In this document: positions 1 through 50,633 of the stretch, piece after piece
Position numbering within the stretch: the first letter of the stretch is position 1
Layout: the number at the start of each line of letters is the position of its first letter
Virus record (IMG/VR): IMGVR_UViG_3300028628_000004
Origin: a virus
Lineage: Duplodnaviria > Caudoviricetes
Direction: 5' to 3' (one strand)
DNA length: 64,000 nucleotides
Notes under the pieces: generated by a model
What the model saw: only the letters and a program-made list of their open reading frames with translations
The model's database searches: none
What the model was told of the DNA's origin: nothing
Position numbers and translations under genes: made by a program

Positions 1-3000
1 TACTTACTTGTTATCTTATTTATTTCCATGTATGCTGGTTTTATCTTTCTTACTTCGGATTTTATGAACTCGTTAATAGCTTCGGTGTTATCAGTACCAT
101 AAGTAGAATCGTCCCATTCTACATTAAATTTATTACTCTTGTACATCGTCGTGACACCGAATGGAGTGTGTTTGGTTATTTCTACCATGGATCTATTTCC
201 ATTTTCCTCTTCGGTGTACACAAAAGACTCTCCGCTGCTGAAGATCTTTTGAAGTATGTGCCTTCTCTGGTTTATTATTTGAATAGAATCCATCAACCAT
301 ACTGATATGAATTTATCAAATACATTTACTAGTTTATTATCCGATACAATGCTCATATCTGAATAATACATAGTTATTCTCTGACCTGACCACTGTGAGA
401 GCCTGACCCATATTGTTAGTGTGTCTTTATCTACATTAAATGTATCAGCATACCATTCTATTTCCGTGTTTGTTCCCTCTAAAGTAAAAGCAAAGGTTTT
501 ATTGTTTATGTCTATCTTAGAAAAATCAAATACAGATCTTCTTACTTCTTTATTATATGTGTTAGAAATGTTATAGCCAGTTCCTTGGAGGACTATGGGG
601 AATAATATATCTTCGTTAATATTATAGTTTAGATTATTAATGAGGATATTTCTCTTATAGGCAAAATTAGAATACTTTGATGTGCTAATATTAGAAAACT
701 CATTTTCTAATTCTGCCCAGGCGATATTTGAATGAATTCTATATACAGCCTCCGCATACATTTCGGCTTCATTGGGGGAGATATAATCCCTAACTTCCCA
801 GTATGTTAACGACCCACTGAAAGAATTCAAAGGATTGTGTGTGACAACATAAGTGTCGGAAGTGTCTTTAGTATATGATATGCCATTAACTAGCTCTCTG
901 CCATTGACATGTATGGAGTACTGCAAGGTATATTTTTTCGCACACCCAAAATCCAATTTTCGGAAGGTATTAACTGTAATTACATTAACAGTTTTAGTGC
1001 TAAGGTTATTCGTTGTAAACTCAAATGTAATTTTTTCTCCTGCCTCGTCGTTTATTGTTATATTCCACTTTTTTGAATTGAAGTTGTACTTAGCGTTAAC
1101 AGCGTCTTGTTGCATGTTTCCGTTGCAATGAATTCTAAATATTTCAACAAATGTGTCGAGATAATCAGTTTCATCGACTTCACAACCTGCGGGTGTGGTT
1201 AGGGATTTAGCGGAATCGTATATATTTTGCATCGTAATATGTTGATGTAACTGATTAAGTTCATCAAAATAACATGTGGATGCTGAAGTTCCAGTAGTCT
1301 CTACTGTTTCTATGCCTGTCGTTGATGGGGTTGAAGAAACACTGTCAGAATTAACGAAAAACCCCCAACTCGTGGAAAACTGATCTAAATCTTCGCTGAT
1401 GTCGTATGTAACTTTTGAGTATCCATGATTGAATATTTTTTGAGTTGGTGGACCCATATTGATTGTTTCAACACTATTGTCTAAGGTGATTATTTCTCTC
1501 GAAAAATCAAATTTATTTTCATTTGCTAACAGAGGATCAAAAGTTAAATAATTCCTGCTTGTGCATCTGTTCTTTATAACATGAACAGTACTATTGTTTA
1601 CTTTTGGTATGTCACAATCTTGGGGGTTTATATCATTCTTATTAATGTCACCTTCCCACAAATATATCATCTTTGAAACATTGTTGACTATTCGGCAATC
1701 TTCTGGTATATAGCCTATGAGAGTAAACAAGTCGTCTTGCTGTGTTGCTGTGTTGATATAGAAACGATCACGAATAAGAATATCTTGTTGGTCTGGAAGA
1801 TGAACTATTTTTGTGTTAGATATTCCTGAACTGATAAGAGAAAAGAAGTTACTGTTGATAAAGTCAAGGTCTAGATGTAAAACGTATGATGCCCAATAGT
1901 AGTTTTTATATCCGTATTTTTCTATATCGTCGGCGCTTGTATCAGTTAAAAACTTATTATAAAATATATAGAAGTTGTTATTGTTTGGTTTTTGTGAACT
2001 AAAAACATCTGTCATGAAGTTAGTTCCGATGAGCGAATCATAGTTTAGTGTATTGTCGGGATATTCATTTACGGCTGATGGTGGATTTGATGTAATTCCT
2101 ACGATACTAGAATCCGTTCCCGATACAGCATCGCTGTAGCAAACCGAAAAATTGGACAATACATTATCTGGCGCAGCCGTTATATTTGGAAGAATGCTTG
2201 ATATATCAATGTCAATATACTTGTTATTTGTTATTACTTTATCACGCTGAACTACAAGTAATTTAAATTTATTTTCTGAAAAGTAAAATATATTTGTTAA
2301 ATTATTATGTTCTATAACCTTATATATATTTTCGATTTGAAACTCTTGTGGTAAACTCTGTTCAAATTCTATCTCTTTATTGTTTTCCGATATTGTAGCG
2401 GTGAATAATCTAGCTAAAGACATTCTTCCTGACGTTCTACTAATAGGAATGGTTAGATCCTTTATAGTGAGGAAATAATCATAGTTGGTGTATATTTGTA
2501 AAGCCGGATCTTGAATGAAATCTATCTTTATCCATACTTTAAGATACTGACCCGGTGTTAGGAGAGTATTTGATGTTAGAGTGTCGGTCCATGTAGCATC
2601 GCTCAATAAGTTTGTGGAGTCTTCTTCATCATATAGAACTAGAGTGGACGTTGAAGTGAAGGCAGTATATATTCCTTCAGCAAATAGACTTACAGATACA
2701 GTTCCATTTACAGCGGGTAATCCGTTGTGGGAAATTGATGCTGAAATGTTTCCTAATATTTCGTTTTCGTTATATCTTTCGTCTGCGCCAATATACATGC
2801 AGCGGTATATTGTTATGCCATTTAAGAAATTATAGTCAGTTATGTCTTTGTAAAACCATCTTGATGATGAATTTAAGTTTCCATAGGCATAAGAGTAATA
2901 GTTCCCGCTATTGTTTGTATCGTTAGTTTTTATCTTTGGTATTGCCGATCCACCAATAGACTCACCGTACCAAATAGCATCAGACGTAATGCCGACTTTA

Positions 3001-3038
3001 TCAATGTTTCCTTCGGACGGTAAATAGGCAATAGCCAT
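1..3038 (-). CDS. Large virion structural protein (~1010 aa), probably baseplate/tail; runs to the window edge
   Basis: Absent from the ORF track because its stop is not in the window. Hand translation of both ends is in frame: MAIAYLPSEGNIDK... after a GGAG RBS and TATAAATA, and ...EVRKIKPAYMEINKITSK (KPA motif as in baseplate proteins). The middle was not fully translated. Confidence 0.7.
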   Translation of the reverse strand, partial: MAIAYLPSEGNIDKVGITSDAIWYGESIGGSAIPKIKTNDTNNSGNYYSYAYGNLNSSSRWFYKDITDYNFLNGITIYRCMYIGADERYNENEILGNISASISHNGLPAVNGTVSVSLFAEGIYTAFTSTSTLVLYDEEDSTNLLSDATWTDTLTSNTLLTPGQYLKVWIKIDFIQDPALQIYTNYDYFLTIKDLTIPISRTSGRMSLARLFTATISENNKEIEFEQSLPQEFQIENIYKVIEHNNLTNIFYFSENKFKLLVVQRDKVITNNKYIDIDISSILPNITAAPDNVLSNFSVCYSDAVSGTDSSIVGITSNPPSAVNEYPDNTLNYDSLIGTNFMTDVFSSQKPNNNNFYIFYNKFLTDTSADDIEKYGYKNYYWASYVLHLDLDFINSNFFSLISSGISNTKIVHLPDQQDILIRDRFYINTATQQDDLFTLIGYIPEDCRIVNNVSKMIYLWEGDINKNDINPQDCDIPKVNNSTVHVIKNRCTSRNYLTFDPLLANENKFDFSREIITLDNSVETINMGPPTQKIFNHGYSKVTYDISEDLDQFSTSWGFFVNSDSVSSTPSTTGIETVETTGTSASTCYFDELNQLHQHITMQNIYDSAKSLTTPAGCEVDETDYLDTFVEIFRIHCNGNMQQDAVNAKYNFNSKKWNITINDEAGEKITFEFTTNNLSTKTVNVITVNTFRKLDFGCAKKYTLQYSIHVNGRELVNGISYTKDTSDTYVVTHNPLNSFSGSLTYWEVRDYISPNEAEMYAEAVYRIHSNIAWAELENEFSNISTSKYSNFAYKRNILINNLNYNINEDILFPIVLQGTGYNISNTYNKEVRRSVFDFSKIDINNKTFAFTLEGTNTEIEWYADTFNVDKDTLTIWVRLSQWSGQRITMYYSDMSIVSDNKLVNVFDKFISVWLMDSIQIINQRRHILQKIFSSGESFVYTEEENGNRSMVEITKHTPFGVTTMYKSNKFNVEWDDSTYGTDNTEAINEFIKSEVRKIKPAYMEINKITSK

Positions 3039-3126
3039 TATGACTCCATATAATGTTGATTATACTATATTTATACTTTTTATCATTTAACAGTAATGGA
3101 AATGATAAATTGGAATGACTGACACA

Positions 3127-3348
3127 TTATTCGGGATATTGTGGAATAGAACTATCATCTCCTAGTGCAACCCCAAACTCCAAAAGTCGAGACTCCCATT
3201 CGACTTTATTGGTAAAAATCTCTAAGTTGGGTTGACCAGTTGATAATGTTTCTTTCTCGTTGGCTACACCATAATGAAATATATCGTTATTATTGTGTGC
3301 TATCCAGAATAAAGCATCTGCGGTGAAAATATGATTTTTTATACTCAT
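3127..3348 (-). CDS. Small hypothetical protein coupled to the large baseplate gene
   Basis: ATGA overlap with the stop of the upstream gene; MSIKNHIF... Confidence 0.65.
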   Translation of the reverse strand: MSIKNHIFTADALFWIAHNNNDIFHYGVANEKETLSTGQPNLEIFTNKVEWESRLLEFGVALGDDSSIPQYPE

Positions 3349-6300: not shown

Positions 6301-9300
6301 CCATCAAGAGTCACTAATTTATTAAAAAGCTTATATTTCGATGTAGGAACTTTTTCGGCAATAAACTCAATATCCATATTAGAAGCGAAAAGCGTGTTCC
6401 AATCTTCTATGTTCCATCCCTTTGTGGCAATTATAATTTGACCAGCAGAATCGGCATAGACATTATTTGGGTCGCTTGCCTGATTTATTAAATATGTCAT
6501 TAATCCATATGGGGTGAATGTTATAGACGCATCTCCAGTGCTTCCATTTATATAGTTAGCCCATTCTAATTCTTTGTTGTTTTTGACCTCATTTGAAGGA
6601 TACCATGAAATAGGAATATAAAATGTGTGGCATGACTTTACGGGGGATTGTTTATAATCATATGCTGGCGGAGAAGTTTCGTTTATTTTTACTTTATTAG
6701 CTTCCGATTCTGTCAATGCATTATCTGGGTTGCTAGTGATGAACGCATCATCGAAATTGAACCCCGAATAATCAAGTCTTACGTTTACTTTAGCATAATA
6801 CATCGTATCTAAAGACACATCACCGTCTAATAATGTAAACTTTAGAGCCGCTGGTTTACTTCCTTCCGAAAGCTTTATATTATAAAAATATTTTTCTATG
6901 GTCGAAAGAGCATTATGGTTTATATTTGATAGAATATCTTTCTGAATCTCTACTGGGTTTTTTGAGACGTCGCGTTTCATCCACACTTGATTTGGTGCCC
7001 ACCAAGAGAAATCTGCATCGTAGTCCAAAGTCGAGTTATTTGTGCAGTCGTTTGTATTTCTGCATGCTTCGGCTACTCCATTTAACAATTTCCTTGAGTT
7101 TGAATCAAGAACATATATGTTGGAAGATCCTGGGTGTGGATATACAGATGCCGCAAGTTTTATGTTGGTACTAAAGTGATATTTGCATAGCAAATCAAGT
7201 CTTGGGTTCTCGTAAGGATTTAAGCAATTATCAGGTAATTTTACTGTCTTTGCTTCCGAGTTAAAAATAACAGATGGGTTTCTTACATATATGCCCAAAA
7301 TACTTATTTTACACATGCCCTGATTGATGGCATCATGTAAGAAGGTAGTAGACAATCCATAGGTTCTACGAGTAGAATCAAGGACTCCAATTGGGAGAAA
7401 TATCTTTACTATATAAGAATTATTACTTCCTTCAGTTAAAGTTGTGTCATCTGGTCTAAACTTGAAGTATGCCTTATCCATCTCCAGAGAATAATGTCCC
7501 CACAAAAGAACGGGTATTTGTCCATCTAATGAATTAACGTCTATTAGCCTCTGAATGTCGTCACAATTCTTAAATCTTACTCCGGTGACTCTCTTCGAAC
7601 TTCCATTATAAACAATTGGACTGAATACTGGATTTTCCCACTTGGTATTATACTTAATAGTCCTTGCTCCGGTTATAGAAGTGAAAATTCCGGAGTCTGG
7701 GCAGACCTCTTGAAATACTCCACGGAGAGGAATTTCAAAGTTTGACAGCATGTATTGCTGCATTCTGTCGCTAAGCGTGAAAGTGAGCGAGGTATCATTT
7801 TCTCTGGTAAGCGAGGAAAATGCATCGTCTGGTTCGGTTTCGTAGTTGTCGAGTGGAACTGACTCGTTGTAGGCGAAAAGACCCGGTATGCGGATCACAT
7901 CTGATCCTGTTGTTGGTGTTGTCTCAACATCAGAAGACCCATAATAGTTCTTGAAAATACTCTTGTCAGTTGCGCGAATATCAGCTAAGAACCAATTTCT
8001 CTGATTTCCAAATGGAATAATAATTTTGCGAGATACTTCGGCAGAGTCCTTAAATCTACTCAACCATTCACTGTCGAAATTAACGATATACCTTGTAGCA
8101 ATATCTTCAGTTACCTTTATATTATTCATATATAAGAAGTTAAGAGATGCGGATCCACCTTCTTCTATGGTATATGTTTCAACTTCTGGATCATACGACT
8201 GACTTATCTGTTTTGTAAATGTTTCGTGATTGTTTATATCGTTATTAAATCTTAAATTAGTTGCTTTAATCCATTCCAGATACTTTGGTTTTATGTCAAG
8301 TTCTTTTTCAGCCGTAGTCCAAAGAGTTTCATCTGGATCAAGAATATTCACCGCTACATCTTTCAATTCCATTATACCATTCTTGCATCCTACGCCATAG
8401 TTACCACCCGTTTCTATTTCGGTGTATTGAATAGTAACTGCTTGGTTTCCCTCTTCATCAACAGTCTGAATCTTGACTGAATCCTTTTGTAATGATACGC
8501 CTTCAAATAATGTTATCCATTCGCCGCAGGCTTGTTGACCGTAAACAGATCCACCCGTTTCATTATTGACGTTATTGGATATTCTTGTTTCCATGTCGTT
8601 GAGGCGAACATATGCTGATACTAAACTACCAGATACTTGTAACTTAAATTCATAATAAGAGTCATCATTAAAGACATATGCTTCGCAGTTATTAACGACT
8701 GGCTTATTGTAGAGTGGCGAATCAGCAGTCCCAAGATTTATTTTTTGTATTATTGCTGTTTCATCAGAAGGATTCTTGACAACTCTTGACAATGACACCC
8801 ACGAATTTCTTGTGTTGATACTAAATCTATAGTATTCTCCAATATTTGCATAAAAATCACTGGAATTTTTTATACCCCTGAAAATAAAGAAAATTTCATT
8901 TTCAGAATATCTGAAGCTTTCTATGGTGTTTGGGTCGTTTATCTTTTTGAATGACCATACAACATTGGCATCAAAGTTCTTAACACTACGATTTGTGTTT
9001 GCTATTACAGATGATATAGTATTTTCTTCAGATAAAGCATATGACAGAGTTATTTTATCTCCATAATCTATCACATCTGGAGATACCTGTAGTATTCCGA
9101 GATTGGATGGGTCTTGCCTTACAGGAATATTCTCATCAAGTGTATATACAAATGGTTCTTGTTGATATGATTCTTCTTCAATTAGTAAGTTTCCATTATT
9201 GTTTCTTACATCGGTAACATATACGGGTTTCTTTTCAATTTCAAACTCGTACCAACCTTCTGTGCTACCGGACATAGTAACAGTAGCTACTTGATCAACA

Positions 9301-26013: not shown

Positions 26014-26112
26014 TGGTGCGGGCGACAGGATTTGAACCTGCGATTTCTTGCTCCCTGGCAGTTACTATTAGGTAACTAAAGCAAGCGGAATACCAGACTT
26101 TCCTACACCCAC
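26014..26112 (-). tRNA. tRNA-Pro(TGG)-like with a 22-nt GCCA-ended hairpin insert (26056..26077)
   Basis: CTTGC-TT-T[insert]GG-GA-GCAAG. Confidence 0.75.
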
Positions 26113-26144: not shown

Positions 26145-26219
26145 TGGTCTGGGCGGTTGGAGTCGCACCAACTTCTTCTCCCTTCCAAAAGGAGCCGTCT
26201 ACTGTTGACCTACGCCCAG
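26145..26219 (-). tRNA. tRNA-Pro(TGG)
   Basis: CTCCT-TT-TGG-AA-GGGAG, C1-G72. Confidence 0.85.
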
Positions 26220-26990: not shown

Positions 26991-27064
26991 TGGTTGGCTC
27001 ACTAGGTTCTGCCCCTAGACTAAAACGTTCAAAGCGTTGTATGCTGCTGTTACATCATGAGCCA
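26991..27064 (-). tRNA. tRNA-Gln(TTG), variant elbow
   Basis: AACG-CT-TTG-AA-CGTT, U1-A72. Confidence 0.82.
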
Positions 27065-27068
27065 ATGA

Positions 27069-27188
27069 TAGTTGGGAGTGAGGGATTCGAACCCCCACAG
27101 AGAGATCCTGGCGACTGTTTATGGACTTGAACCACATTGTTTCCTATAACAATCAAAGTCTCTCGTCCTACCATTAGACGAACCCCCA
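27069..27188 (-). tRNA. tRNA-Gln(TTG) with a 46-nt mini-tRNA insert (27109..27154)
   Basis: AGAGA-CT-TT[insert]G-GA-TCTCT; host tRNA ends in CTA rather than CCA. Confidence 0.8.
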
Positions 27189-27194
27189 ATGAAA

Positions 27195-27269
27195 TGGTTG
27201 GCACGGTAGGTGCTGCCCCTACTACGTCGGGTGTCAGAAACCCGCATTCTGCTGTTGAATTACGTGCCA
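27195..27269 (-). tRNA. tRNA-Gln(CTG)
   Basis: CGGGT-TT-CTG-AC-ACCCG. Confidence 0.85.
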
Positions 27270-27827: not shown

Positions 27828-27898
27828 TGCAGGATAGAGGAATCGAACCTCTGACTCCGGCTTAACTGCCGGTGTGATAACCACTTCACCAATCCCGC
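27828..27898 (-). tRNA. tRNA-like with a 6-nt anticodon loop, identity undetermined
   Basis: CCGGC-AGTTAA-GCCGG; intact D and T arms; no CCA. Confidence 0.55.
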
Positions 27899-28330: not shown

Positions 28331-28447
28331 AAAAGACCACACCGTTTCTGCATTGTTAAGAGGCTGGTATGGTGCTACTGAACGACCACTCATGGTTGAG
28401 CATCTTAGAGAGGCTTGAGTGGGGCGGAGCCGTTTCATGCTCCTTAT

Positions 28448-29042: not shown

Positions 29043-29230
29043 TGGTGGGGGAGGTTGGATTCGAACCAACATGCCTCATCGGAACTTATCAGTTAAGTCC
29101 CACGCCTTACGCTCGTTGGGTAATTACTCCGTATGAGCATCGTGGGTTGAATTCTCTATTGTGAGTAACGTTATCTCTCACAGAAAATTCGTTTGTTCAA
29201 CGAGTCGCTTTGCCATTAGCGTACTCCCCC
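29043..29230 (-). ncRNA. Tyr-like tRNA body with ~110-nt structured insertion replacing the anticodon
   Basis: GGGGGAG/CTCCCCC-ACCA, canonical D and T arms. Confidence 0.65.
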
Positions 29231-31485: not shown

Positions 31486-31560
31486 TGGTGCCCCCACCAC
31501 GACTCTCACATGGCTTTCCGGAGTACAAAACCGGTGTGTCGATATCTACACTTTAGGGGC
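31486..31560 (-). tRNA. tRNA-Thr(TGT), variant elbow
   Basis: CCGGT-TT-TGT-AC-TCCGG. Confidence 0.75.
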
Positions 31561-32445: not shown

Positions 32446-32521
32446 TGGTGCTTCCGGTGGGATTTTAACCCACAACCAAGCGGTTTAGAATCGCTTGCTC
32501 TTTCATTTGAGCTACGGAGGC
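32446..32521 (-). tRNA. Amber suppressor tRNA (CTA)
   Basis: AGCGA-TT-CTA-AA-CCGCT, full cloverleaf, ACCA. Confidence 0.8.
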
Positions 32522-34606: not shown

Positions 34607-34726
34607 TGGCTGGAAAGAAGGGATTCGAACCCCTGACCTAGTGATTATGGTGATGAGCGTAAGAGTTGAACTTACTGATTCCTTTGCCCATTACAGTCAC
34701 TTGCACTACCGCTGTGCTACTTTCCA
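34607..34726 (-). tRNA. tRNA-Asn(GTT) with a 45-nt mini-tRNA insert (34648..34692)
   Basis: AGTGA-CT-GT[insert]T-AA-TCACT. Confidence 0.8.
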
Positions 34727-34732
34727 ATGATT

Positions 34733-34830
34733 TGGCGTTCCCGGTAGGATTTGAACCTACGACCATTGGATTATGGCAGTGATTTGTTAATCACCGAAAT
34801 CCAAAGCTCTTCCAACTGAGCTACGAGAAC
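34733..34830 (-). tRNA. tRNA-Arg(TCT) with a 22-nt GCCA-ended hairpin insert (34774..34795)
   Basis: TTGGA-TT-TC[insert]T-AA-TCCAA. Confidence 0.82.
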
Positions 34831-34833
34831 ATG

Positions 34834-34912
34834 TGGCACCCATGGTAGGAGTTGAACCTACATGTATCCAGTTAGCTTTCTCCTGCTTAGAAGGCAGGCG
34901 GCATACATGGGC
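34834..34912 (-). tRNA. tRNA-Arg(TCT), D-arm-less with expanded variable region
   Basis: CCTGC-CT-TCT-AA-GCAGG. Confidence 0.75.
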
Positions 34913-37963: not shown

Positions 37964-38037
37964 TGGCTGCCCCAAAGGGAATCGAACCCCTATGATCTGA
38001 TTAACAGTCAGACATAATACCATTATATGACAGGGCA
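37964..38037 (-). tRNA. tRNA-Asn(GTT)
   Basis: TCTGA-CT-GTT-AA-TCAGA. Confidence 0.88.
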
Positions 38038-38505: not shown

Positions 38506-38586
38506 TAGAGCCTCTGACGGGGATTAGGCACCCCGCTTCCTCCGGTTTACAGTCCGGTGCTTTAAACTAATATAAGCTACAGAAGC
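38506..38586 (-). tRNA. Thr-like tRNA with irregular anticodon and T loops, identity undetermined
   Basis: CCGG-ACTGTAAA-CCGG; ends in CTA. Confidence 0.5.
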
Positions 38587-39718: not shown

Positions 39719-42199
39719 TTAGCATTTTGAGTAGCCACATGCCTTACAAGTCTGACATCCTTCCATACGGATGATGTCCTTGCTACCGCAGCTTGGACAT
39801 GTTTCTCCGCTTACCTTTACTCCATTTTTAATATACTTCTTCAGGACTCGGCACATGACCTTGGTGAAGGATGCTATATTGTCGGTACGGACCTTTTCAA
39901 GTTGATGAACAAGATGCTCAAGAGGCGTTCCATGTCTCAACGAAATAGATACAAGACGGGTTACAAGCTCTTCTTCCTCTGTCTGGTCCTTCATGATGTT
40001 CTTGATAGTGAACCCATCATCAAATTCAACGTCATAGTGACCTTTTGCTTTCTTGACAAGCTTTCCATTGACATACTTCTTGTCAATGGTTCCGTTTTCG
40101 AAAACGAATAGTTCGTATGGCTCTCCACCTTCGAACAGACCAACGACCGCACAGTATTCTATTGAGCGAACCTTGTCAAGTTTCTTGCTGAGCTTCACAT
40201 GGTGTACTTCGCACTTGAGAGAAGTGGGACGCTTTGGGGCTGTTGTTTTAGTGATGGTAATAGCGTCTCTTCCGGATTTTTCCTTTGTTTCCTTTGGTTT
40301 ATCGTCAACGAGAACACCAGTACGACAGCCATCACGATAGATGGTAAAGCCCTTGCAGCCGCTTTCCCATGCCTTCATGTAAATCTCGGATACAAGTTCC
40401 TTGGTAGCAGAGTTTGGTAGGTTACAGGTCTTGCTGATAGAGTGACTTACCCACTTCTGTGCTGCTGCCTGAAGATCCACGGAAGCGACCCAATCAATCT
40501 CGTTTGAGGTTGCTTTGAAGTATGGGGAGTCTTCTATTTTTTCTTTTCCGGTTACTTCCATCCACTTGCGGAAGCCGTGGTGATAAACAGGAAACTCTTG
40601 CCACTTGTCACCCATGTCATCAACAAAATCAACTTTAGCAGATTTATCGTTTGGATTTATTTTCTTACGACGAGTGTACTTAAGAAGGAACGAAGGTTCG
40701 ATTCCAGAGGTAGTCTGTGTCATGGTAGAAACAGATCCAACTGGAGCCGTGGTAGTGGTCGATATGTTTCTACGACCATGCTTCTTGTAAAGGGTCTTGA
40801 GTTCGGGGTCAGATTCCAATAGCCTCTCTATAAATGGATGACCCCTCTCAAGCTTAGCGTCGAATATCGGGAATGTTCCACGATCACGCGCCATCATACA
40901 CGATGCCTTCTCGGAGTTGATGGCAAGTGCCTTGTATATTTCTTCAGTTTTCTTGATGGATTCTTTGGAGCCATAGCGAATATTTAAGGCGGCGAGGGCG
41001 TCACCAAGGGCAGTGATGCCAAGCCCTGTTCTACGACCATTGATGCATGCATTCTTGATGTTATTCCAGAGGTCAATTTCTATCTTCTTAACATTCTCTG
41101 GCTCAATATCGGCATGTATCTTCTTTAGAATCTTATCTATCTGCTCAAGCTCAATATCAATCATATCGTCCATAAGCCGCTGGGCTACTTGAGTAACTTC
41201 CGCGAACTTGACGAAATCAAACTCTGCTTTGTCAGTAAACGCATCATTGACAAACGAATTCAGATTGACAACCATAAGTCTGCAACTGTCGTATGGAGAA
41301 AGAGTTATCTCACCACATGGATTTGTTGAAGTGGATTTATATGATTCGTATATATCTGCTGGACCGTTATTTACGACATTATCCCAGAAAAGGATTCCAG
41401 GCTCAGCGGATTCCCAAGCAGCCTGAATAATCTCGCTCCAGATTTCTCTTGCATTTACCATTTCACTAATAGATGGCGTCTTGCTATCTACAGGAAAGCG
41501 CAACTCAACTTGTTTGTCCTGCTTGACTGCCTTCATGAACTCGTCAGTCATACGGATTGAAATGTTAGCACCAGTTACCTTCTTTTTGTCGCGCTTGATG
41601 TTGATGAAAGTTCTTATCTCGGGATGGTGACATGATATAGATAACATTAGAGCGCCTCTGCGCCCGTTCTGTGCAACTTCGCGACATGTATTCGAAAATC
41701 TTTCCATGAACACGCCGATACCGTCAGTGGTACGAGCAGCGTTCTTGGTTGATAGTCCCTTTGGACGAATATTGGATATATCGAATCCAACTCCACCACG
41801 ACGCTTCATAACTTGAGCCTGCTCTTGGTCTGTATGTAATATACCACCATACGAGTCAAGCGGCGAAGGAATCACGAAGCAGTTTGATGCAGACTGAATC
41901 TGATACGGATTTCCTATGGCTGACATAGGAGAACCCTGTGGAACTATATACTTGAAATTCTTGAAGTAAGAATATATCTCATCTTCTGACAATGGGTTTG
42001 GATACTTCTTTTCAATTCTGGCAAATTCTTTTGCTATTCTTCTGTGGGCTTGGTCGGGGGAACTTTCGAGTAGTTCATGTTTTTCGTTTCTGAGCGCATA
42101 CTTTCCTACGAATACTGAGGCTGCTAGTTCGTCACCATTGAAATATTCTACTGACTCCTTAGTTGCTTCTTCGTGGGTGTAAATTCTCTTATTTGTCAT
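39719..42199 (-). CDS. nrdJ: Class II adenosylcobalamin-dependent ribonucleotide reductase
   Basis: SNCFV; RRGA; TNPCGE; SISKTCN; C-terminal Zn ribbon ...CGYSKC. Confidence 0.9.
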   Translation of the reverse strand: MTNKRIYTHEEATKESVEYFNGDELAASVFVGKYALRNEKHELLESSPDQAHRRIAKEFARIEKKYPNPLSEDEIYSYFKNFKYIVPQGSPMSAIGNPYQIQSASNCFVIPSPLDSYGGILHTDQEQAQVMKRRGGVGFDISNIRPKGLSTKNAARTTDGIGVFMERFSNTCREVAQNGRRGALMLSISCHHPEIRTFINIKRDKKKVTGANISIRMTDEFMKAVKQDKQVELRFPVDSKTPSISEMVNAREIWSEIIQAAWESAEPGILFWDNVVNNGPADIYESYKSTSTNPCGEITLSPYDSCRLMVVNLNSFVNDAFTDKAEFDFVKFAEVTQVAQRLMDDMIDIELEQIDKILKKIHADIEPENVKKIEIDLWNNIKNACINGRRTGLGITALGDALAALNIRYGSKESIKKTEEIYKALAINSEKASCMMARDRGTFPIFDAKLERGHPFIERLLESDPELKTLYKKHGRRNISTTTTAPVGSVSTMTQTTSGIEPSFLLKYTRRKKINPNDKSAKVDFVDDMGDKWQEFPVYHHGFRKWMEVTGKEKIEDSPYFKATSNEIDWVASVDLQAAAQKWVSHSISKTCNLPNSATKELVSEIYMKAWESGCKGFTIYRDGCRTGVLVDDKPKETKEKSGRDAITITKTTAPKRPTSLKCEVHHVKLSKKLDKVRSIEYCAVVGLFEGGEPYELFVFENGTIDKKYVNGKLVKKAKGHYDVEFDDGFTIKNIMKDQTEEEELVTRLVSISLRHGTPLEHLVHQLEKVRTDNIASFTKVMCRVLKKYIKNGVKVSGETCPSCGSKDIIRMEGCQTCKACGYSKC

Positions 42200-46569: not shown

Positions 46570-46746
46570 TTATTTCCTTCCGCAGCCGCAGCCGCCTTTT
46601 TTCTTAGCTGGGGTGTTTGGTTTTGGTAATGGGACTGGTGGTGTATTGTTTGGTTTCGCTACTTGCTTTTTAGCAGGCGTTGCTTCTTTGGGTTTGTTAT
46701 CAGATGTAGGTAACGGGCGTCCGTTAATATATCTTTTTATAATCAT
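46570..46746 (-). CDS. 58-aa Pro/Lys-rich protein ending GGCGCGRK
   Basis: Below the ORF-track cutoff; fills the gap exactly (ATGA overlap upstream, TAA-ATG downstream). Confidence 0.7.
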   Translation of the reverse strand: MIIKRYINGRPLPTSDNKPKEATPAKKQVAKPNNTPPVPLPKPNTPAKKKGGCGCGRK

Positions 46747-49700
46747 TGGGCTTGTTGATTTCCTATGGCTTTTATTATTTTATCATCGTATGGATTATCT
46801 TTAACACGATTAATCCAATTGTTTATCGTTCTTGCAGATAGCTTGGTTTTGTCCTTTATTTCTTTTATGTCTATCTTCTTCTTTACAGTTAGGTAGAGGC
46901 GCGATAAACTGTCTAAAGCATCGTTGATGGTTTCTTCAGCTAAGAAATAAGAATCCATTTCTCCTGTTGCAGTTATTTCCTTGAGCTTCGTGACTCTATC
47001 TGCTGGCATATGGAGGGGCGAAGCAATATTACCCTTTAGTTCTATGAGGTTATTCTTTATTACTTCGTCTTGATCGCCACTATCAACCATTTCACTTAAA
47101 TATGGATATGTTGTCTCCCCCGAACCTAAGAGATATTTCTTTATTGCGGTAACGATATTTTTCTCGCTTTCGGCATACTTTGGGTCTTTGGAATTTGTTG
47201 CCGACTGAATAAGCGTATCATAGTTTGGTATTGTCTTTTTCAACTCGGCAATAAACTTCGAATCTATTCTTCCGGTAGACTTTTTCCACTTATCCAACGC
47301 CTGTTTCAGTTGCTTAGCGTCAGAGTTCTTCTTGAGGTCTTCAATATTTCTCTTTTCACGAGCGGCTTTTATTAGATCATCTGGGTTCTTACCAGCAGCC
47401 TTTGCTTTGTTGACTATTTCATTGTATGTTCTTTCCATAGTCTTTTCACTTTGCTGTAACTTACGGAAAGAAGACTTCAACTCTTTATTCATCTCATCGG
47501 CGTTAGATTGTCCCTTTTTAACTAAATCATTAATCTTATCCAACCCTCTCGCAATACCACCATTAAAGGCAGATAATACGCTTCCTGCTTTTTCATTTTC
47601 TTTTGAAACTACCCACGCTACCATTGATAATGCGGTTTTGAAAATAGTGCTAAGGTCAGATATTACATCGGGATTACCCATCATAGAAGCATATGGTTCT
47701 GGTTTCTTATTTTCCGGAAGTTCCTCTGTGGGATTAATTTCTTTTGTCTCAACATCAACTGGTTTATCTTTATCAGGCAATTTTGTTGCTTCTGATTTCA
47801 AATACTTTAGGGCTTCAATGACATCCTTCTTCTTACTGGGATCCTTCTTTATCATATCATCAATGCTTTGGATTATCTTTTGTAGTTCTATATCACTTGC
47901 TTGAAGTTCATTAATAACTTTGAATACTTTTTCATTGAAGGTTTTTCTCATCAAAGTGTTATATTTTTTGGAGTTAAATTCTGCTTGCGAAGCAGAAACA
48001 GAAGTTATCTCGTCTTTTGCTTGGTCAAGAATATGCTGTATAGCCCCATCAGTATCGGGGGTATGCTTAAATTGATTATTTTCCGCTTCTATATCTTGCT
48101 GAATACTCTTTAAATCCAGGGGTTCCTTATTCTGTGCTTTCTTAAGAATTATTTTCTTAATCATATCAGCGGTCCCACCATCAATATTTGTAACTTTAAT
48201 AGAATTGAGTTTATCTTCTAGCTTCTTATTTTGTTCCTGTTTATTCTTCTCAGGATCAACCGCATCCCCAGCGGTTCCTTGGGGAACAGGAGTGTCATTT
48301 TTATCGGACTGCGGCGAATCGCTGCCAAGTTTCTTAATAATATCATCTATGTTTTCAGGAGATAACTTTCTTTCTTTATCTATGGCGTCTGCTAAGGCAA
48401 TAACTTCGGGAGTAAATTCCTGCTTTGGTTCTTCTTGTTTTGGATTTTCTGGCTTAGGTGGCTCTGCTGGTTTATTGGTGTCTGCTGGTGGATTAGCTGG
48501 AGCAGGTTCGGCTTCTACAAGTTTACATGAAAACTTGGATCTTACCAGCGACTCAACAGCTTCTTTCTTGTCGATATTGAGCTTATTATAGATGTCATTA
48601 TACATTTCTATTACCTCATTGTCTTTAAGAGCATGTGGAGGACATACATTTGCCACCCATGTTTGGAAATCTGTTGTCTTAGCCGATTCTCTGGCGGCGG
48701 TTCCGCTCATAACTCTTGGAGTCTGGATGAACGCAACTGCCGAAGTTCCTCTGTCATTTACTTTGAGTGGCAAAGAAGCATGGTCCTGAACCCATAGGTT
48801 GGCATTGAATCTAGCTACATCTTTCTTATAGTCTTCTATTCTGTCTTCACCGGCGAGCCAGCCCGCGACATACATCTTGAGAGGCTCTATTCTTGCCCAT
48901 ATGGCTGATGATGTTGAGGTTGGCAACGGAACTGGAGCCACTGATACGGCTGGATCATTCTTATATATTGCCTGAATAAGTTGCTTCTGTTCTGCTTCAT
49001 TGAGTGGGTTGTCTTCTTTATTCTTGGATGTCTCTCCGCCCTTGACGATGAAGATAAGAACCTTTTCAGCGCCAACTTCTTTGAGTTTGTCCTTAGCAAG
49101 TTGAATCATAGCGTCATGACCACGGTGCCAAGGCTGCGCTCTACCATTCCAGAGTATTACTGGTGTCTGACCTTCGTAATACTTACTGAAGTCGGTTGTT
49201 GGTTTGTTCATGTGAGCAGCGGCGTAAGTGTTCAAGCGTCTTTCCAAGAAGAACTTGAGAATGTAAATCTGGAATATTTCTGGTGGTATGTCTGTTTGAA
49301 TAGCTTCTTCAATCTTTTGGAACTTGTCAATGACAATTTCAATAGCTTTGGTTGTCTTACGGCGGGTGTCTGGATCCAGTGACTTTGCATTTGCTTTGAA
49401 AGCATCTATAATCTTTGTAAGTTCTTCCGTGGCACTCTCAAATACAGCATTTACTTTCTGCTTGGTTTCCTCTGGAGAAGACATTGCCCCAGCGTCTTTG
49501 AGTGACTCGTATAACTTGAAGAGAAACTGAAGTTCCTTCTTCTCAGCGTCTTTTTCGTCACTGGTGAACGACTGAGCGAGCTTCTTAATAGCATTATTCA
49601 GAGCGGCTGGCTGGGCTGTACTCAGCCCAAGAGCATCCTTCAAGAATCTTCCATCGGTTACTTCTTCTAACGACCCAAGATCCATACGAGTTGCCCAAGT

Positions 49701-50633
49701 CTGCTTCTTGAGTTCATCAAATGCCTTGGAGGTTCCTTTGACTTCGAAGATGCTGCCATCAGCTTGCTTGAGACGAAGAACAACGCCTTCTATGGGTGAC
49801 TTTTCGCCAGCCTTGGAGAATATAGATGAAGTCTTCTCCGCATAGGCATCAAGAACACTCTGTAGTTTATCTTTGGCGTCACGAATGGCGTTCTTCAAGT
49901 GAGCCTTCATGGTGGTATTGCCACGGGACTTGAGAACTGTGAGAGCCTCGTCAATTCCTTCTTCAGTTGACAGCATCTCATCAAGGTTATCAATCTTGAA
50001 TTCTATATTTCCAGATAGCTTCGCGTGCTTTTCGTTGGTGTAAATTCTCCAATCAGCGGAATCTGCTGTTTCTATGGCAGCTATAAGCTTATGGTTGGTC
50101 TTTGGATCTGGGCGCTTCCATTGAGCGTTTTCGTCTTTTATCCATGACTTGAATACAACGAACGCTCCGTTCTTACCAAATTTGTTCTTGTCGTAGCGAG
50201 TAGCTACAAAGGTTATATAACCAGTATCGTCGCCAGTGTGGGTCAATACAGGGAATATTTCGGCATCGTAACGGATGGGACCAAACTTGGCTGATATCTT
50301 CTTGAGGGCATTCTGAAGTATAGTGTTCCCAAGGAGAGACTCAAAGCTTGCCTTAAAGTCCCCGAAGAAGTACTCATTGGAAAACTTCTGTCTGTAATTA
50401 TCTACAGTGACTTCTCCCGAGTTCGATGTCTCTATGAAAAATGTCCCATGGTCGTTTATTCCGAAATGACAGAACGCAGAATCCATCTTCTCAACGACAT
50501 CAATGTTCTTGACTTTACTGAGGTCTATCTTTCCCGCCTTTACATAAGGTAATAGTTCTTTGAAAATTTCAAGGAACTCAACATCAGAGTATTCACTCTT
50601 TCCTGAAAATCTGCCTATTCCCTCACGTGGCAT
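46743..50633 (-). CDS. Fusion of RNA-ligase-like domain, cytidyltransferase-like domain and helical C-terminus
   Basis: EKMDS, DAEIF, EGVVLR, EVK; GRAQPWHRGH, NPL, GEDR, MSGT. Confidence 0.7.
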   Translation of the reverse strand: MPREGIGRFSGKSEYSDVEFLEIFKELLPYVKAGKIDLSKVKNIDVVEKMDSAFCHFGINDHGTFFIETSNSGEVTVDNYRQKFSNEYFFGDFKASFESLLGNTILQNALKKISAKFGPIRYDAEIFPVLTHTGDDTGYITFVATRYDKNKFGKNGAFVVFKSWIKDENAQWKRPDPKTNHKLIAAIETADSADWRIYTNEKHAKLSGNIEFKIDNLDEMLSTEEGIDEALTVLKSRGNTTMKAHLKNAIRDAKDKLQSVLDAYAEKTSSIFSKAGEKSPIEGVVLRLKQADGSIFEVKGTSKAFDELKKQTWATRMDLGSLEEVTDGRFLKDALGLSTAQPAALNNAIKKLAQSFTSDEKDAEKKELQFLFKLYESLKDAGAMSSPEETKQKVNAVFESATEELTKIIDAFKANAKSLDPDTRRKTTKAIEIVIDKFQKIEEAIQTDIPPEIFQIYILKFFLERRLNTYAAAHMNKPTTDFSKYYEGQTPVILWNGRAQPWHRGHDAMIQLAKDKLKEVGAEKVLIFIVKGGETSKNKEDNPLNEAEQKQLIQAIYKNDPAVSVAPVPLPTSTSSAIWARIEPLKMYVAGWLAGEDRIEDYKKDVARFNANLWVQDHASLPLKVNDRGTSAVAFIQTPRVMSGTAARESAKTTDFQTWVANVCPPHALKDNEVIEMYNDIYNKLNIDKKEAVESLVRSKFSCKLVEAEPAPANPPADTNKPAEPPKPENPKQEEPKQEFTPEVIALADAIDKERKLSPENIDDIIKKLGSDSPQSDKNDTPVPQGTAGDAVDPEKNKQEQNKKLEDKLNSIKVTNIDGGTADMIKKIILKKAQNKEPLDLKSIQQDIEAENNQFKHTPDTDGAIQHILDQAKDEITSVSASQAEFNSKKYNTLMRKTFNEKVFKVINELQASDIELQKIIQSIDDMIKKDPSKKKDVIEALKYLKSEATKLPDKDKPVDVETKEINPTEELPENKKPEPYASMMGNPDVISDLSTIFKTALSMVAWVVSKENEKAGSVLSAFNGGIARGLDKINDLVKKGQSNADEMNKELKSSFRKLQQSEKTMERTYNEIVNKAKAAGKNPDDLIKAAREKRNIEDLKKNSDAKQLKQALDKWKKSTGRIDSKFIAELKKTIPNYDTLIQSATNSKDPKYAESEKNIVTAIKKYLLGSGETTYPYLSEMVDSGDQDEVIKNNLIELKGNIASPLHMPADRVTKLKEITATGEMDSYFLAEETINDALDSLSRLYLTVKKKIDIKEIKDKTKLSARTINNWINRVKDNPYDDKIIKAIGNQQAQ

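Follow-up and report, generated by a model that had tools for sequence, protein, structure and literature searches.

Short introns with a resemblance to transfer RNA (tRNA) have been described in the tRNA genes of large phages. Devoto et al. 2019 (PMC6784885) reported 'enigmatic' tRNA introns in Lak megaphages, one of which 'may encode a tRNA', and found them to be identical across cohorts and variably present; according to Table S6 of that study (PMC6784885), these introns are 79-114 nucleotides (nt) long and combine a short hairpin, an A-rich spacer and a cloverleaf-like element. A 2026 survey (PMC13037316) counted tRNA introns in 262 recoded jumbo phages and remarked that an intron 'could encode another tRNA'; neither of the two studies proposes a mechanism. 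In cyanobacteria, plastids and some proteobacteria, tRNA anticodon loops can carry group I introns (reviewed in PMC3984707). Here we describe a stretch of 64,000 nt of phage DNA (IMG/VR record IMGVR_UViG_3300028628_000004; this whole stretch is called the window below) in which a tRNA-Gln gene is interrupted within its anticodon by a 46-nt insert resembling the end of a tRNA, and in which tRNA-Asn, tRNA-Arg and tRNA-Pro genes carry inserts built in the same way. As far as we know, the tRNA introns of bacteria and their viruses are thought to be self-splicing only. The inserts studied here are conserved, precisely bounded mimics of tRNA ends placed inside an anticodon, and they are very probably introns.

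The split genes belong to a minus-strand array of about 40 tRNA genes and a transfer-messenger RNA gene, at about 22.3-38.8 kilobases (kb) of the window. Relatives were reached in two ways: a pattern scan that left the insert unspecified led to a second lineage (L001 and L002 in IMG/VR; L134 and L135 in metagenomes, one of them a 127-kb contig), and the reductase gene (93% identical) and the PTH2 gene of the window led to a close relative (L142/L217). In the Gln gene itself, the initial annotation had placed a 46-nt, tRNA-end-like insert in the anticodon, and this was confirmed both by reading the sequence and by an end-to-end match of the Rfam tRNA model over 27188..27072, in which 48 bases of the anticodon loop stay unaligned (Table 1). 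The insert runs from the first strand of a 7-base-pair (bp) helix with one G.U pair through an 11-nt linker and a 5-bp stem with a 7-nt T-loop to the 3' strand of the helix, a single G and CCA; its T-loop is canonical in form (U54 U55 C56 A57 A58). Taking the insert out restores the 7-nt loop CU-UUG-GA, as had been claimed, and the same loop is found in the intact tRNA-Gln(UUG) of L216, a related phage. The proposed position between bases 35 and 36 holds for Gln, where a repeated G lets the boundary slide by one base to 36/37, but it is not general, as the whole set spans 33/34 to 36/37. At its own 3' end the gene reads A-CTA, with no CCA encoded.

Inserts of the same design had also been claimed for the Asn, Arg and Pro genes, and all three are present, with lengths of 45, 22 and 22 nt. 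The exons of the four split genes score 48.8-59 bits as tRNA with Rfam; we are thus dealing with insertions in an anticodon loop whose exons form a normal tRNA, as in the tRNA introns of Lak and jumbo phages. Run without its intron mode, ARAGORN mislabels the split genes as Thr, Pro, Tyr or Leu. We identified Asn by G73 and the short variable loop, with the Arg-Asn gene order common to the window and L001, and Pro by comparison with the insert-less Pro(UGG) of L216. When the mature loops of insert-less homologues are used as a guide, the boundaries of the Asn and Arg inserts and of both Pro inserts (window and L001) are unambiguous, and the insert is exactly what lies from the helix through CCA. 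The resemblance of the inserts themselves to a tRNA is partial and comes in two forms: in Gln and Asn an acceptor-type helix with a T arm and neither D arm nor anticodon arm, in Arg and Pro a helix with N-CCA. By themselves, the inserts were not matched by the Rfam tRNA model. The fold of the Arg insert has a z-score of -4.9.

Table 1. Split tRNA genes, their parts, intact paralogues and RNA repair genes (positions are those of the window unless a contig is named)
Feature	Position	Strand	Description
tRNA-Gln(UUG) with insert	27072..27188	minus	Rfam tRNA model 48.8 bits; ARAGORN with introns
Gln 5' exon	27155..27188	minus	acceptor 5' strand, D arm, anticodon stem 5' strand, loop bases 32-35; 34/34 identical to L001
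Gln insert	27109..27154	minus	46 nt; mini-tRNA top half
Gln 3' exon	27072..27108	minus	loop bases 36-38, anticodon stem 3' strand, variable loop, T arm, acceptor 3' strand, discriminator; 36/37 identical to L001
tRNA-Asn(GUU) with insert	34607..34726	minus	Rfam 57.3 bits; G73, short variable loop; Arg-Asn adjacency as in L001
Asn insert	34648..34692	minus	45 nt; A.C first pair and 6-bp helix, 10-nt linker, T arm, A-CCA
tRNA-Arg(UCU) with insert	34733..34830	minus	Rfam 59 bits
Arg insert	34774..34795	minus	22 nt, between bases 35/36; 7-bp helix, tetraloop, G-CCA
tRNA-Pro(UGG) with insert	26014..26112	minus	Rfam 50.7 bits; D arm and anticodon stem same as in insert-less Pro(UGG) of L216
Pro insert	26056..26077	minus	22 nt, between bases 34/35; 6-bp helix, 6-nt loop CTAATA, G-CCA
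Intact paralogue tRNA-Pro(UGG)	26145..26219	minus	just downstream of split Pro; same arrangement in L001
Intact paralogue tRNA-Asn(GUU)	37964..38037	minus	
RNA repair cluster	L226:1717-2805, 7321-7938, 6626-7270, 7977-8735; L225:415-1620, 2792-3241		about 28-40 kb before window start

Counting the relatives, there are eight distinct inserts from three related phage lineages: Gln, Asn, Arg and Pro in the window, Gln, Pro and Thr in the L001-type phages, and Gly in the L142-type. All eight start a helix with their first base and close with one base followed by CCA (the first pair being mismatched in Asn), and in all eight, removal leaves a loop of 7 nt that has U33, a plausible anticodon and, at position 37, a purine, in agreement with insert-less homologues. 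To gauge how often this would arise by chance, we shuffled the loop-plus-insert region in 200,000 trials per insert and counted the cases in which a helix of 6 bp or more, starting at base one or two, was followed by any base and CCA with a 7-nt loop restored; between 84 and 170 of the 200,000 shuffles per insert, about 5 in 10,000, gave the design. The insert helix is present in the minimum free energy (MFE) fold of each of the seven pre-tRNAs folded, and in the three larger inserts a 7+5 bp stack (12 bp) is joined to a canonical T-loop. The tail is RCCA in six inserts and UCCA in two, the first insert base is G in 5/8, and the base before the insert is U in 6/8, a figure to be read with the general U-richness of anticodon loops in mind. 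Read from the sequence, these inserts have the features of bacterial RNase P minihelix and hairpin substrates, namely a helix at the cut site, a 3' RCCA and an optional T arm.

Several familiar explanations could be set aside. A group I intron was rejected because the inserts, at 22-46 nt, are an order of magnitude too short and have no Rfam intron or ribozyme match, and a bulge-helix-bulge intron because the MFE folds consist of the anticodon stem, an asymmetric internal loop and the insert helix; on both counts, lengths and predicted folds support what the initial annotation had said. The known small self-cleaving ribozymes (hammerhead, twister, hepatitis delta virus-like and others) were likewise rejected, given that none is matched in Rfam and that a 22-nt hairpin is too small for a known core. 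A composite tRNA made of the 5' exon and the insert, reported by ARAGORN at low threshold, was discarded because its acceptor strands are unpaired. The Rfam searches covered positions 20000-42000 and 27040-27220 of the window at gathering and at permissive thresholds, and no intron or ribozyme family was found for the inserts. An EndA-like gene was seen neither among the larger window open reading frames (ORFs) scanned nor in the Pfam hits of about 41 kb upstream, a region which we reached through overlapping contigs that are 100% identical to the window in the overlaps.

In the relatives, the exons have changed very little in comparison with the inserts and flanks. The Gln exons of the window and L001 are identical at 70 of 71 positions and the insert at 31 of 46, with no alignment of the flanks; in L001, each of the seven pairs in the helix of the Gln insert has given way to another standard pair, with the linker, T-loop and G-CCA retained. 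The L001 Pro insert, located at 33/34, has a different 6-bp helix, the same 6-nt loop and a T-CCA end, and its removal gives UU-UGG-GA. In Thr(UGU) of the L001-type lineage (L137), the insert is a 22-nt helix with T-CCA, and L220 has a Thr(UGU) without insert whose exons match those of L137 at 70 of 73 positions, with compensatory differences in the T-stem. Closer to the window, the Asn insert is unchanged in L142 and L217 and the Arg insert has one A-to-G change there, turning a U-A pair into U.G. These two also have a 35-nt insert in Gly(UCC), a helix followed by A-CCA whose boundaries slide over three positions; the window Gly(UCC) at the corresponding place is insert-less, although the window and L142 genes are not simple orthologues. 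In all, relatives contribute four further inserts (Gln, Pro, Thr and Gly), and the N-CCA, whose loss among homologous inserts the initial annotation had named as evidence against its idea, is kept in both comparisons (G-CCA in the two Gln inserts; G-CCA and T-CCA in the two Pro inserts). To judge by these alignments, the insert design is conserved as structure and not as sequence, and the N-CCA is conserved.

At the same sites, presence and absence of the insert vary: Thr is split in L137 vs intact in L220, Pro is split in the window and L001 vs intact in the more distant counterpart of L216, and Arg and Asn are split in the window vs intact in L001, where the gene order is the same. In addition, the linker and T-loop of the window Asn insert are closer to those of the L001 Gln insert than the two Gln inserts are to each other, a similarity that hints at exchange between genes. 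Both observations would suit a view in which the inserts arrived as selfish DNA or by accident, possibly carried along by the homing endonucleases of the array (HNH and GIY-YIG endonuclease genes are interspersed in it, as is a gene for a PTH2-type peptidyl-tRNA hydrolase), and inactivated redundant tRNA copies that are now pseudogenes. We regard this as improbable. Pseudogenes would decay, whereas the exons here are near-identical where the flanks no longer align and the insert helices stay paired through full turnover of their sequence; moreover, mobility and splicing are not exclusive, as mobile introns are typically spliced.

Another alternative is that the inserts are never removed from a functional tRNA. 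They could form a stable helix-NCCA display on a tRNA scaffold, or a mini-helix could be released by RNase P and 3' trimming with destruction of the tRNA, and either product could divert, as a decoy or sponge, toxins or enzymes that recognise tRNA acceptor ends or anticodon loops. Enzymes that target acceptor ends would indeed see a hairpin with NCCA, intact Asn and Pro paralogues lie beside or near the split copies, and many further unusual tRNA-like genes are present in the array, among them one that lacks a D arm and others whose loops measure 6 or 9 nt. A decoy would nevertheless have little reason to preserve the bases of the split loop, yet all eight inserts leave seven bases with U33 and a purine at 37, matching insert-less homologues; nor would it explain exons as strongly constrained as those of the Gln gene, or the fact that in two lineages (the window and the L001-type contigs) no canonical Gln tRNA other than the split one was called. 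For these reasons, we consider a decoy role quite unlikely.

Taken together, we favour the reading of the inserts as spliced introns because the loops are restored exactly, the exons are near-constant against diverging inserts and flanks, the only canonical Gln gene called is split, and the pair of one split and one intact Pro gene, side by side, is kept in two lineages (window and L001). A decoy or a pseudogene, as far as one can tell from the genes themselves, would not need exact 7-nt loops, constrained exons, a split gene as the only Gln called or a kept Pro pair. We therefore hold it to be distinctly likely that the inserts are removed at the RNA level, and likely that some form of protein-dependent splicing is responsible. 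The specific route through RNase P, a 3' nuclease and a ligase, as set out below, is a real possibility that falls short of being probable.

In this route, the inserts would be true tRNA introns that are taken out by proteins or ribonucleoproteins and not by self-splicing. The intron would mimic the acceptor end of a tRNA: its helix opens with the first base and in some cases stacks on a T arm, and a discriminator and CCA close the element. Bacterial RNase P recognises tRNAs, minihelices and hairpins ending in RCCA and cuts just 5' of the helix, giving a 3'-OH and a 5'-phosphate; its determinants include a 12-bp acceptor/T stack, RCCA, a U before the cut and a G as the first base. The host enzyme could accordingly cut immediately 5' of the insert helix, so that the 5' exon would end in a 3'-OH. 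Next, an endonuclease that spares the CCA, of the RNase Z/BN type or some enzyme not yet recognised, would cut just behind this triplet and leave a 5'-phosphate on the 3' exon; Thermotoga RNase Z is an enzyme that cuts after CCA, and Escherichia coli RNase BN spares CCA. Since 31 of the 35 window tRNA genes called by ARAGORN encode their own CCA, the host must in any case process CCA-bearing precursors. The two halves would be held together by the tRNA body, and a phage ATP-dependent RNA ligase, most plausibly of the Rnl1 type, would seal the nick in the anticodon loop; a nick of this kind, with 3'-OH and 5'-phosphate in a folded tRNA, is the natural substrate of T4 Rnl1. As the anticodon is unreadable until splicing, the intron could time or shield these tRNAs. 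Stated in full, we would tentatively propose a further tRNA splicing route, in which an acceptor-end-mimic intron (down to a 22-nt helix with N-CCA) is cut by RNase P and a CCA-respecting endonuclease and the exons are resealed by an Rnl1-type ligase, the tRNAs being kept without an anticodon, and perhaps immune to anticodon nucleases, until they are processed.

The genome does encode RNA ligases, as the initial annotation would require for the joining of exons, and one of them is of the Rnl1 type, the family that seals anticodon-loop breaks. This gene (L225:415-1620; PF09511, E 1.1e-10, 42.3 bits vs a cut-off of 28.3) lies about 31 kb before the window start, and close to it are a P-loop kinase gene (AAA_33, E 1e-25), two genes with a PF09414 ligase domain and two metallophosphoesterase genes, with ClpS and ClpP nearby; inside the window, Pfam and PHROGs gave no nuclease or ligase for such a reaction on the larger ORFs. 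The ligases make the sealing step plausible as far as gene content goes.

A number of points, on the other hand, weigh against the route as a whole. Its weakest step is the 3' cut after CCA: we know of no bacterial enzyme for which exact cleavage behind an internal CCA is established in every host, and if the 3' end were trimmed by exonucleases in the usual way, the 3' exon would be lost. Many large phages carry RNA ligase kits, and a PF09414 ligase is also found in L216, where no inserts were seen, so that the presence of ligases discriminates little. The split Asn and Pro genes need not be essential, given their intact paralogues. A scan of bacterial genomes with the Gln anticodon arm hit many phyla and was uninformative about the host. 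In the Lak introns, the inner tRNA is preceded by a hairpin and a spacer, which RNase P by itself would not remove. Finally, there is one insert that breaks the pattern, a 21-nt one in the Pro gene of L245 (L245:10842-10937, minus strand; the same as L228:2839-2937), which has a 5-bp helix, a tetraloop and A-CCA, and in which a 7-nt loop is obtained only if one or two bases beyond the helix and CCA are counted to the insert. The rule that the insert extends from helix to CCA is thus strict in the group of the window (8/8) and not universal. The L245 contig was binned into a metagenome-assembled genome of Bacteroidota, and it is probably phage because of its tRNA density, with 15 (Rfam) or 16 (ARAGORN) tRNAs within a few kb.

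A rival account also treats the inserts as spliced introns, with a dedicated endonuclease of phage or host that would read the helix and its single-stranded tail and leave a 2',3'-cyclic phosphate and a 5'-OH; a kinase, a phosphoesterase and a ligase would then heal and seal the ends, and RNase P and RNase Z would take no part. Models for such healing and sealing exist in fungal and plant-type tRNA splicing and in the T4 repair of PrrC damage. All that speaks for exact excision speaks for this scheme too, and neither the L245 outlier nor the 5' hairpins of the Lak introns fit simple cutting by RNase P. The P-loop polynucleotide-kinase-like gene and the two metallophosphoesterase genes, which stand beside three ligase-family genes, suit this scheme and the RNase P route equally well; healing enzymes are needed only for cyclic-phosphate and 5'-OH ends. 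We nevertheless find a dedicated endonuclease unlikely. No EndA, RNase or HEPN family turned up in the Pfam and PHROG scans of the larger window ORFs or in the Pfam hits upstream; such an enzyme would have no obvious need for a T arm and an exact N-CCA, which are both hallmarks of tRNA end recognition; and repair kits can be explained without introns, as a defence against host anticodon nucleases.

How widespread are these inserts? Among phage Pro tRNAs with the same T arm, none of 48 showed an insert (45 had plain 7-nt loops and three were not resolved by the stem finder), which suggests that the inserts are confined to a few lineages. A covariance model, R1, was built with the three larger inserts as the training set, and the scores of the Gln insert (54.4 bits) and the window Asn insert (57.4 bits) are therefore those of training sequences; run over 317 kb of related DNA, it yielded no additional copy, the other matches being 3' halves of ordinary tRNAs with at most 27 bits. 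A pattern for the linker and T-loop gave 119 hits across IMG/VR, of which L001 and L002 are real and the rest are due to chance. A metagenome scan for split Gln genes returned only the L001-type phage, and among 78 loci anchored on the reductase gene, the tRNA array was found in L142 only. As a separate observation, three contigs of IMG/VR sample 3300045988 (L029:6902-7030, L054:8171-8861 and L108:72-200) have inserts of about 35-49 nt in the anticodon region of several different tRNA genes. These have sequence blocks in common and no CCA end, and they look like a second, unrelated family of short phage tRNA inserts.

The window as such is part of a large tailed phage with 38.6% G+C. Pfam and PHROG matches identify genes for a T4-like baseplate (gp25, gp6/J and a gp5-like protein), a ribonucleotide reductase, DNA methylases and sugar-modifying enzymes, and a megablast search of 20 kb of it against deposited phages gave no match. 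The phage is present in more than 30 public assemblies, among them JGI 3300028635 and SRR8476363. The ribonucleotide reductase gene (39719-42199) is uninterrupted in the window and about 930 bases longer in L142 (2184-5597) and L217, with hits to an intein and an HNH domain in L217. A protein of 1296 amino acids (46743-50633, minus strand) has a cytidylyltransferase-like (HxGH) domain, which spans residues 496-578. More than 50 proteins of large uncultured phages share its conserved N-terminal region of 330 residues, in which ligase-like motifs can be seen by eye; Pfam and PDB sequence searches gave no support for these motifs.

The tRNA array has peculiarities of its own. One tRNA-like gene (29043-29230, minus strand; counterpart L220:12583-12774) has a normal acceptor stem, D arm, T arm and CCA, and about 115 extra bases in the anticodon region. 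This extra block is kept in the L220 relative, with other bases next to the anticodon stem; it does not follow the helix-NCCA design, is matched by no Rfam family and allows no convincing placement of a 7-nt loop. Other odd tRNA-like genes of the array, all on the minus strand, are found at 34837-34912, 27828-27898, 31489-31560 and 38508-38586. In one of these odd genes (anticodon UCU), directly upstream of the split Arg(UCU), about 8 bases replace the D arm and the variable region is 20 nt long; two further ones have a 6-nt anticodon loop and a 9-nt loop containing UUG, respectively, and the fourth was given no assignment. A tRNA at 32446-32521 (minus strand) has the amber-reading anticodon CUA, although under the standard code the window's long ORFs are open. 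Between tRNA genes, at 28385-28422 (minus strand), Rfam reports the abiF RNA motif with 41.6 bits, vs a gathering threshold of 37.

If the proposed route is correct, RNase P, a 3' nuclease and an RNA ligase would together make up a new splicing pathway. It would provide a housekeeping substrate for the widespread RNA ligases of phages, and it could explain the megaphage introns that have been 'enigmatic' since 2019. The 22-nt inserts are the smallest and cleanest test objects so far, with determinants that could be tested on short synthetic transcripts. There is also a practical side: as standard bacterial tRNA finders miss or mislabel the split genes, inventories of phage tRNAs and arguments built on codon usage are biased.

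It is useful, finally, to place the inserts among systems that are already known. They resemble the mobile group I introns of anticodon loops in that the host tRNA is of bacterial type, the site is the anticodon loop, the element can be mobile and homing endonucleases are often at hand; group I introns, however, are ribozymes of about 200 nt or more with a P1-P9 core, and the present inserts measure 22-46 nt. Archaeal and eukaryal bulge-helix-bulge introns are likewise short, located in or near the anticodon loop and spliced by proteins, with exons rejoined by an RNA ligase, as we propose here. In contrast, they are defined by a 3-4-3 motif and sit at 37/38, whereas our inserts occupy 33/34 to 36/37 in a bacterial and phage setting, and no EndA-like gene was seen among the larger window ORFs scanned and the Pfam hits upstream. 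tRNA-like processing signals are familiar from mitochondrial tRNA punctuation and from mascRNA at the 3' end of MALAT1. These signals and the minihelix or hairpin-RCCA substrates of RNase P have in common with our inserts an acceptor-type helix, with or without a T arm, and a 3' RCCA; they act as cutting signals only and their flanks are not rejoined, while here the element lies inside another tRNA whose flanks would need to be ligated. The repair of tRNA-Lys by T4 Pnkp and Rnl1 after PrrC cleavage also involves an anticodon-loop break by the wobble base and sealing by the Rnl1 family (as proposed here, with such a ligase encoded in this genome), yet that break is damage by a host nuclease and not the excision of an encoded insert.

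The closest counterparts are the introns of Lak and jumbo phages, which, like the present inserts, lie in a phage anticodon loop, are too short for self-splicing, resemble a tRNA at least in part, are variably present and belong to no Rfam family. They differ in consisting of a 5' hairpin, an A-rich spacer and a full cloverleaf-like element without CCA, where our inserts are either the top half of a tRNA (45-46 nt) or a bare helix (22 nt), and end in N-CCA. In one predicted Lak intron of 114 nt, the Rfam tRNA match ends at base 113, and the authors call the prediction one base off (PMC6784885); such a match would fit an intron whose 3' boundary coincides with the end of the inner tRNA. By our reading of their sequences, a placement exists for all four Lak introns in which the last intron base is the one that follows the inner acceptor stem, with no CCA. 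Full-text searches of the literature gave no description of NCCA-ended inserts or of RNase P-dependent splicing; even so, the initial annotation's 'new intron class' was an overstatement, given the tRNA-like phage introns already present in PMC6784885 and PMC13037316. What is new here is the variant, the bare 22-nt helix with NCCA, and to the known introns the window adds the presence of four inserts in a single array, clean comparisons with compensatory variants and with insert-less counterparts, and a verified set of ligases in the same genome.

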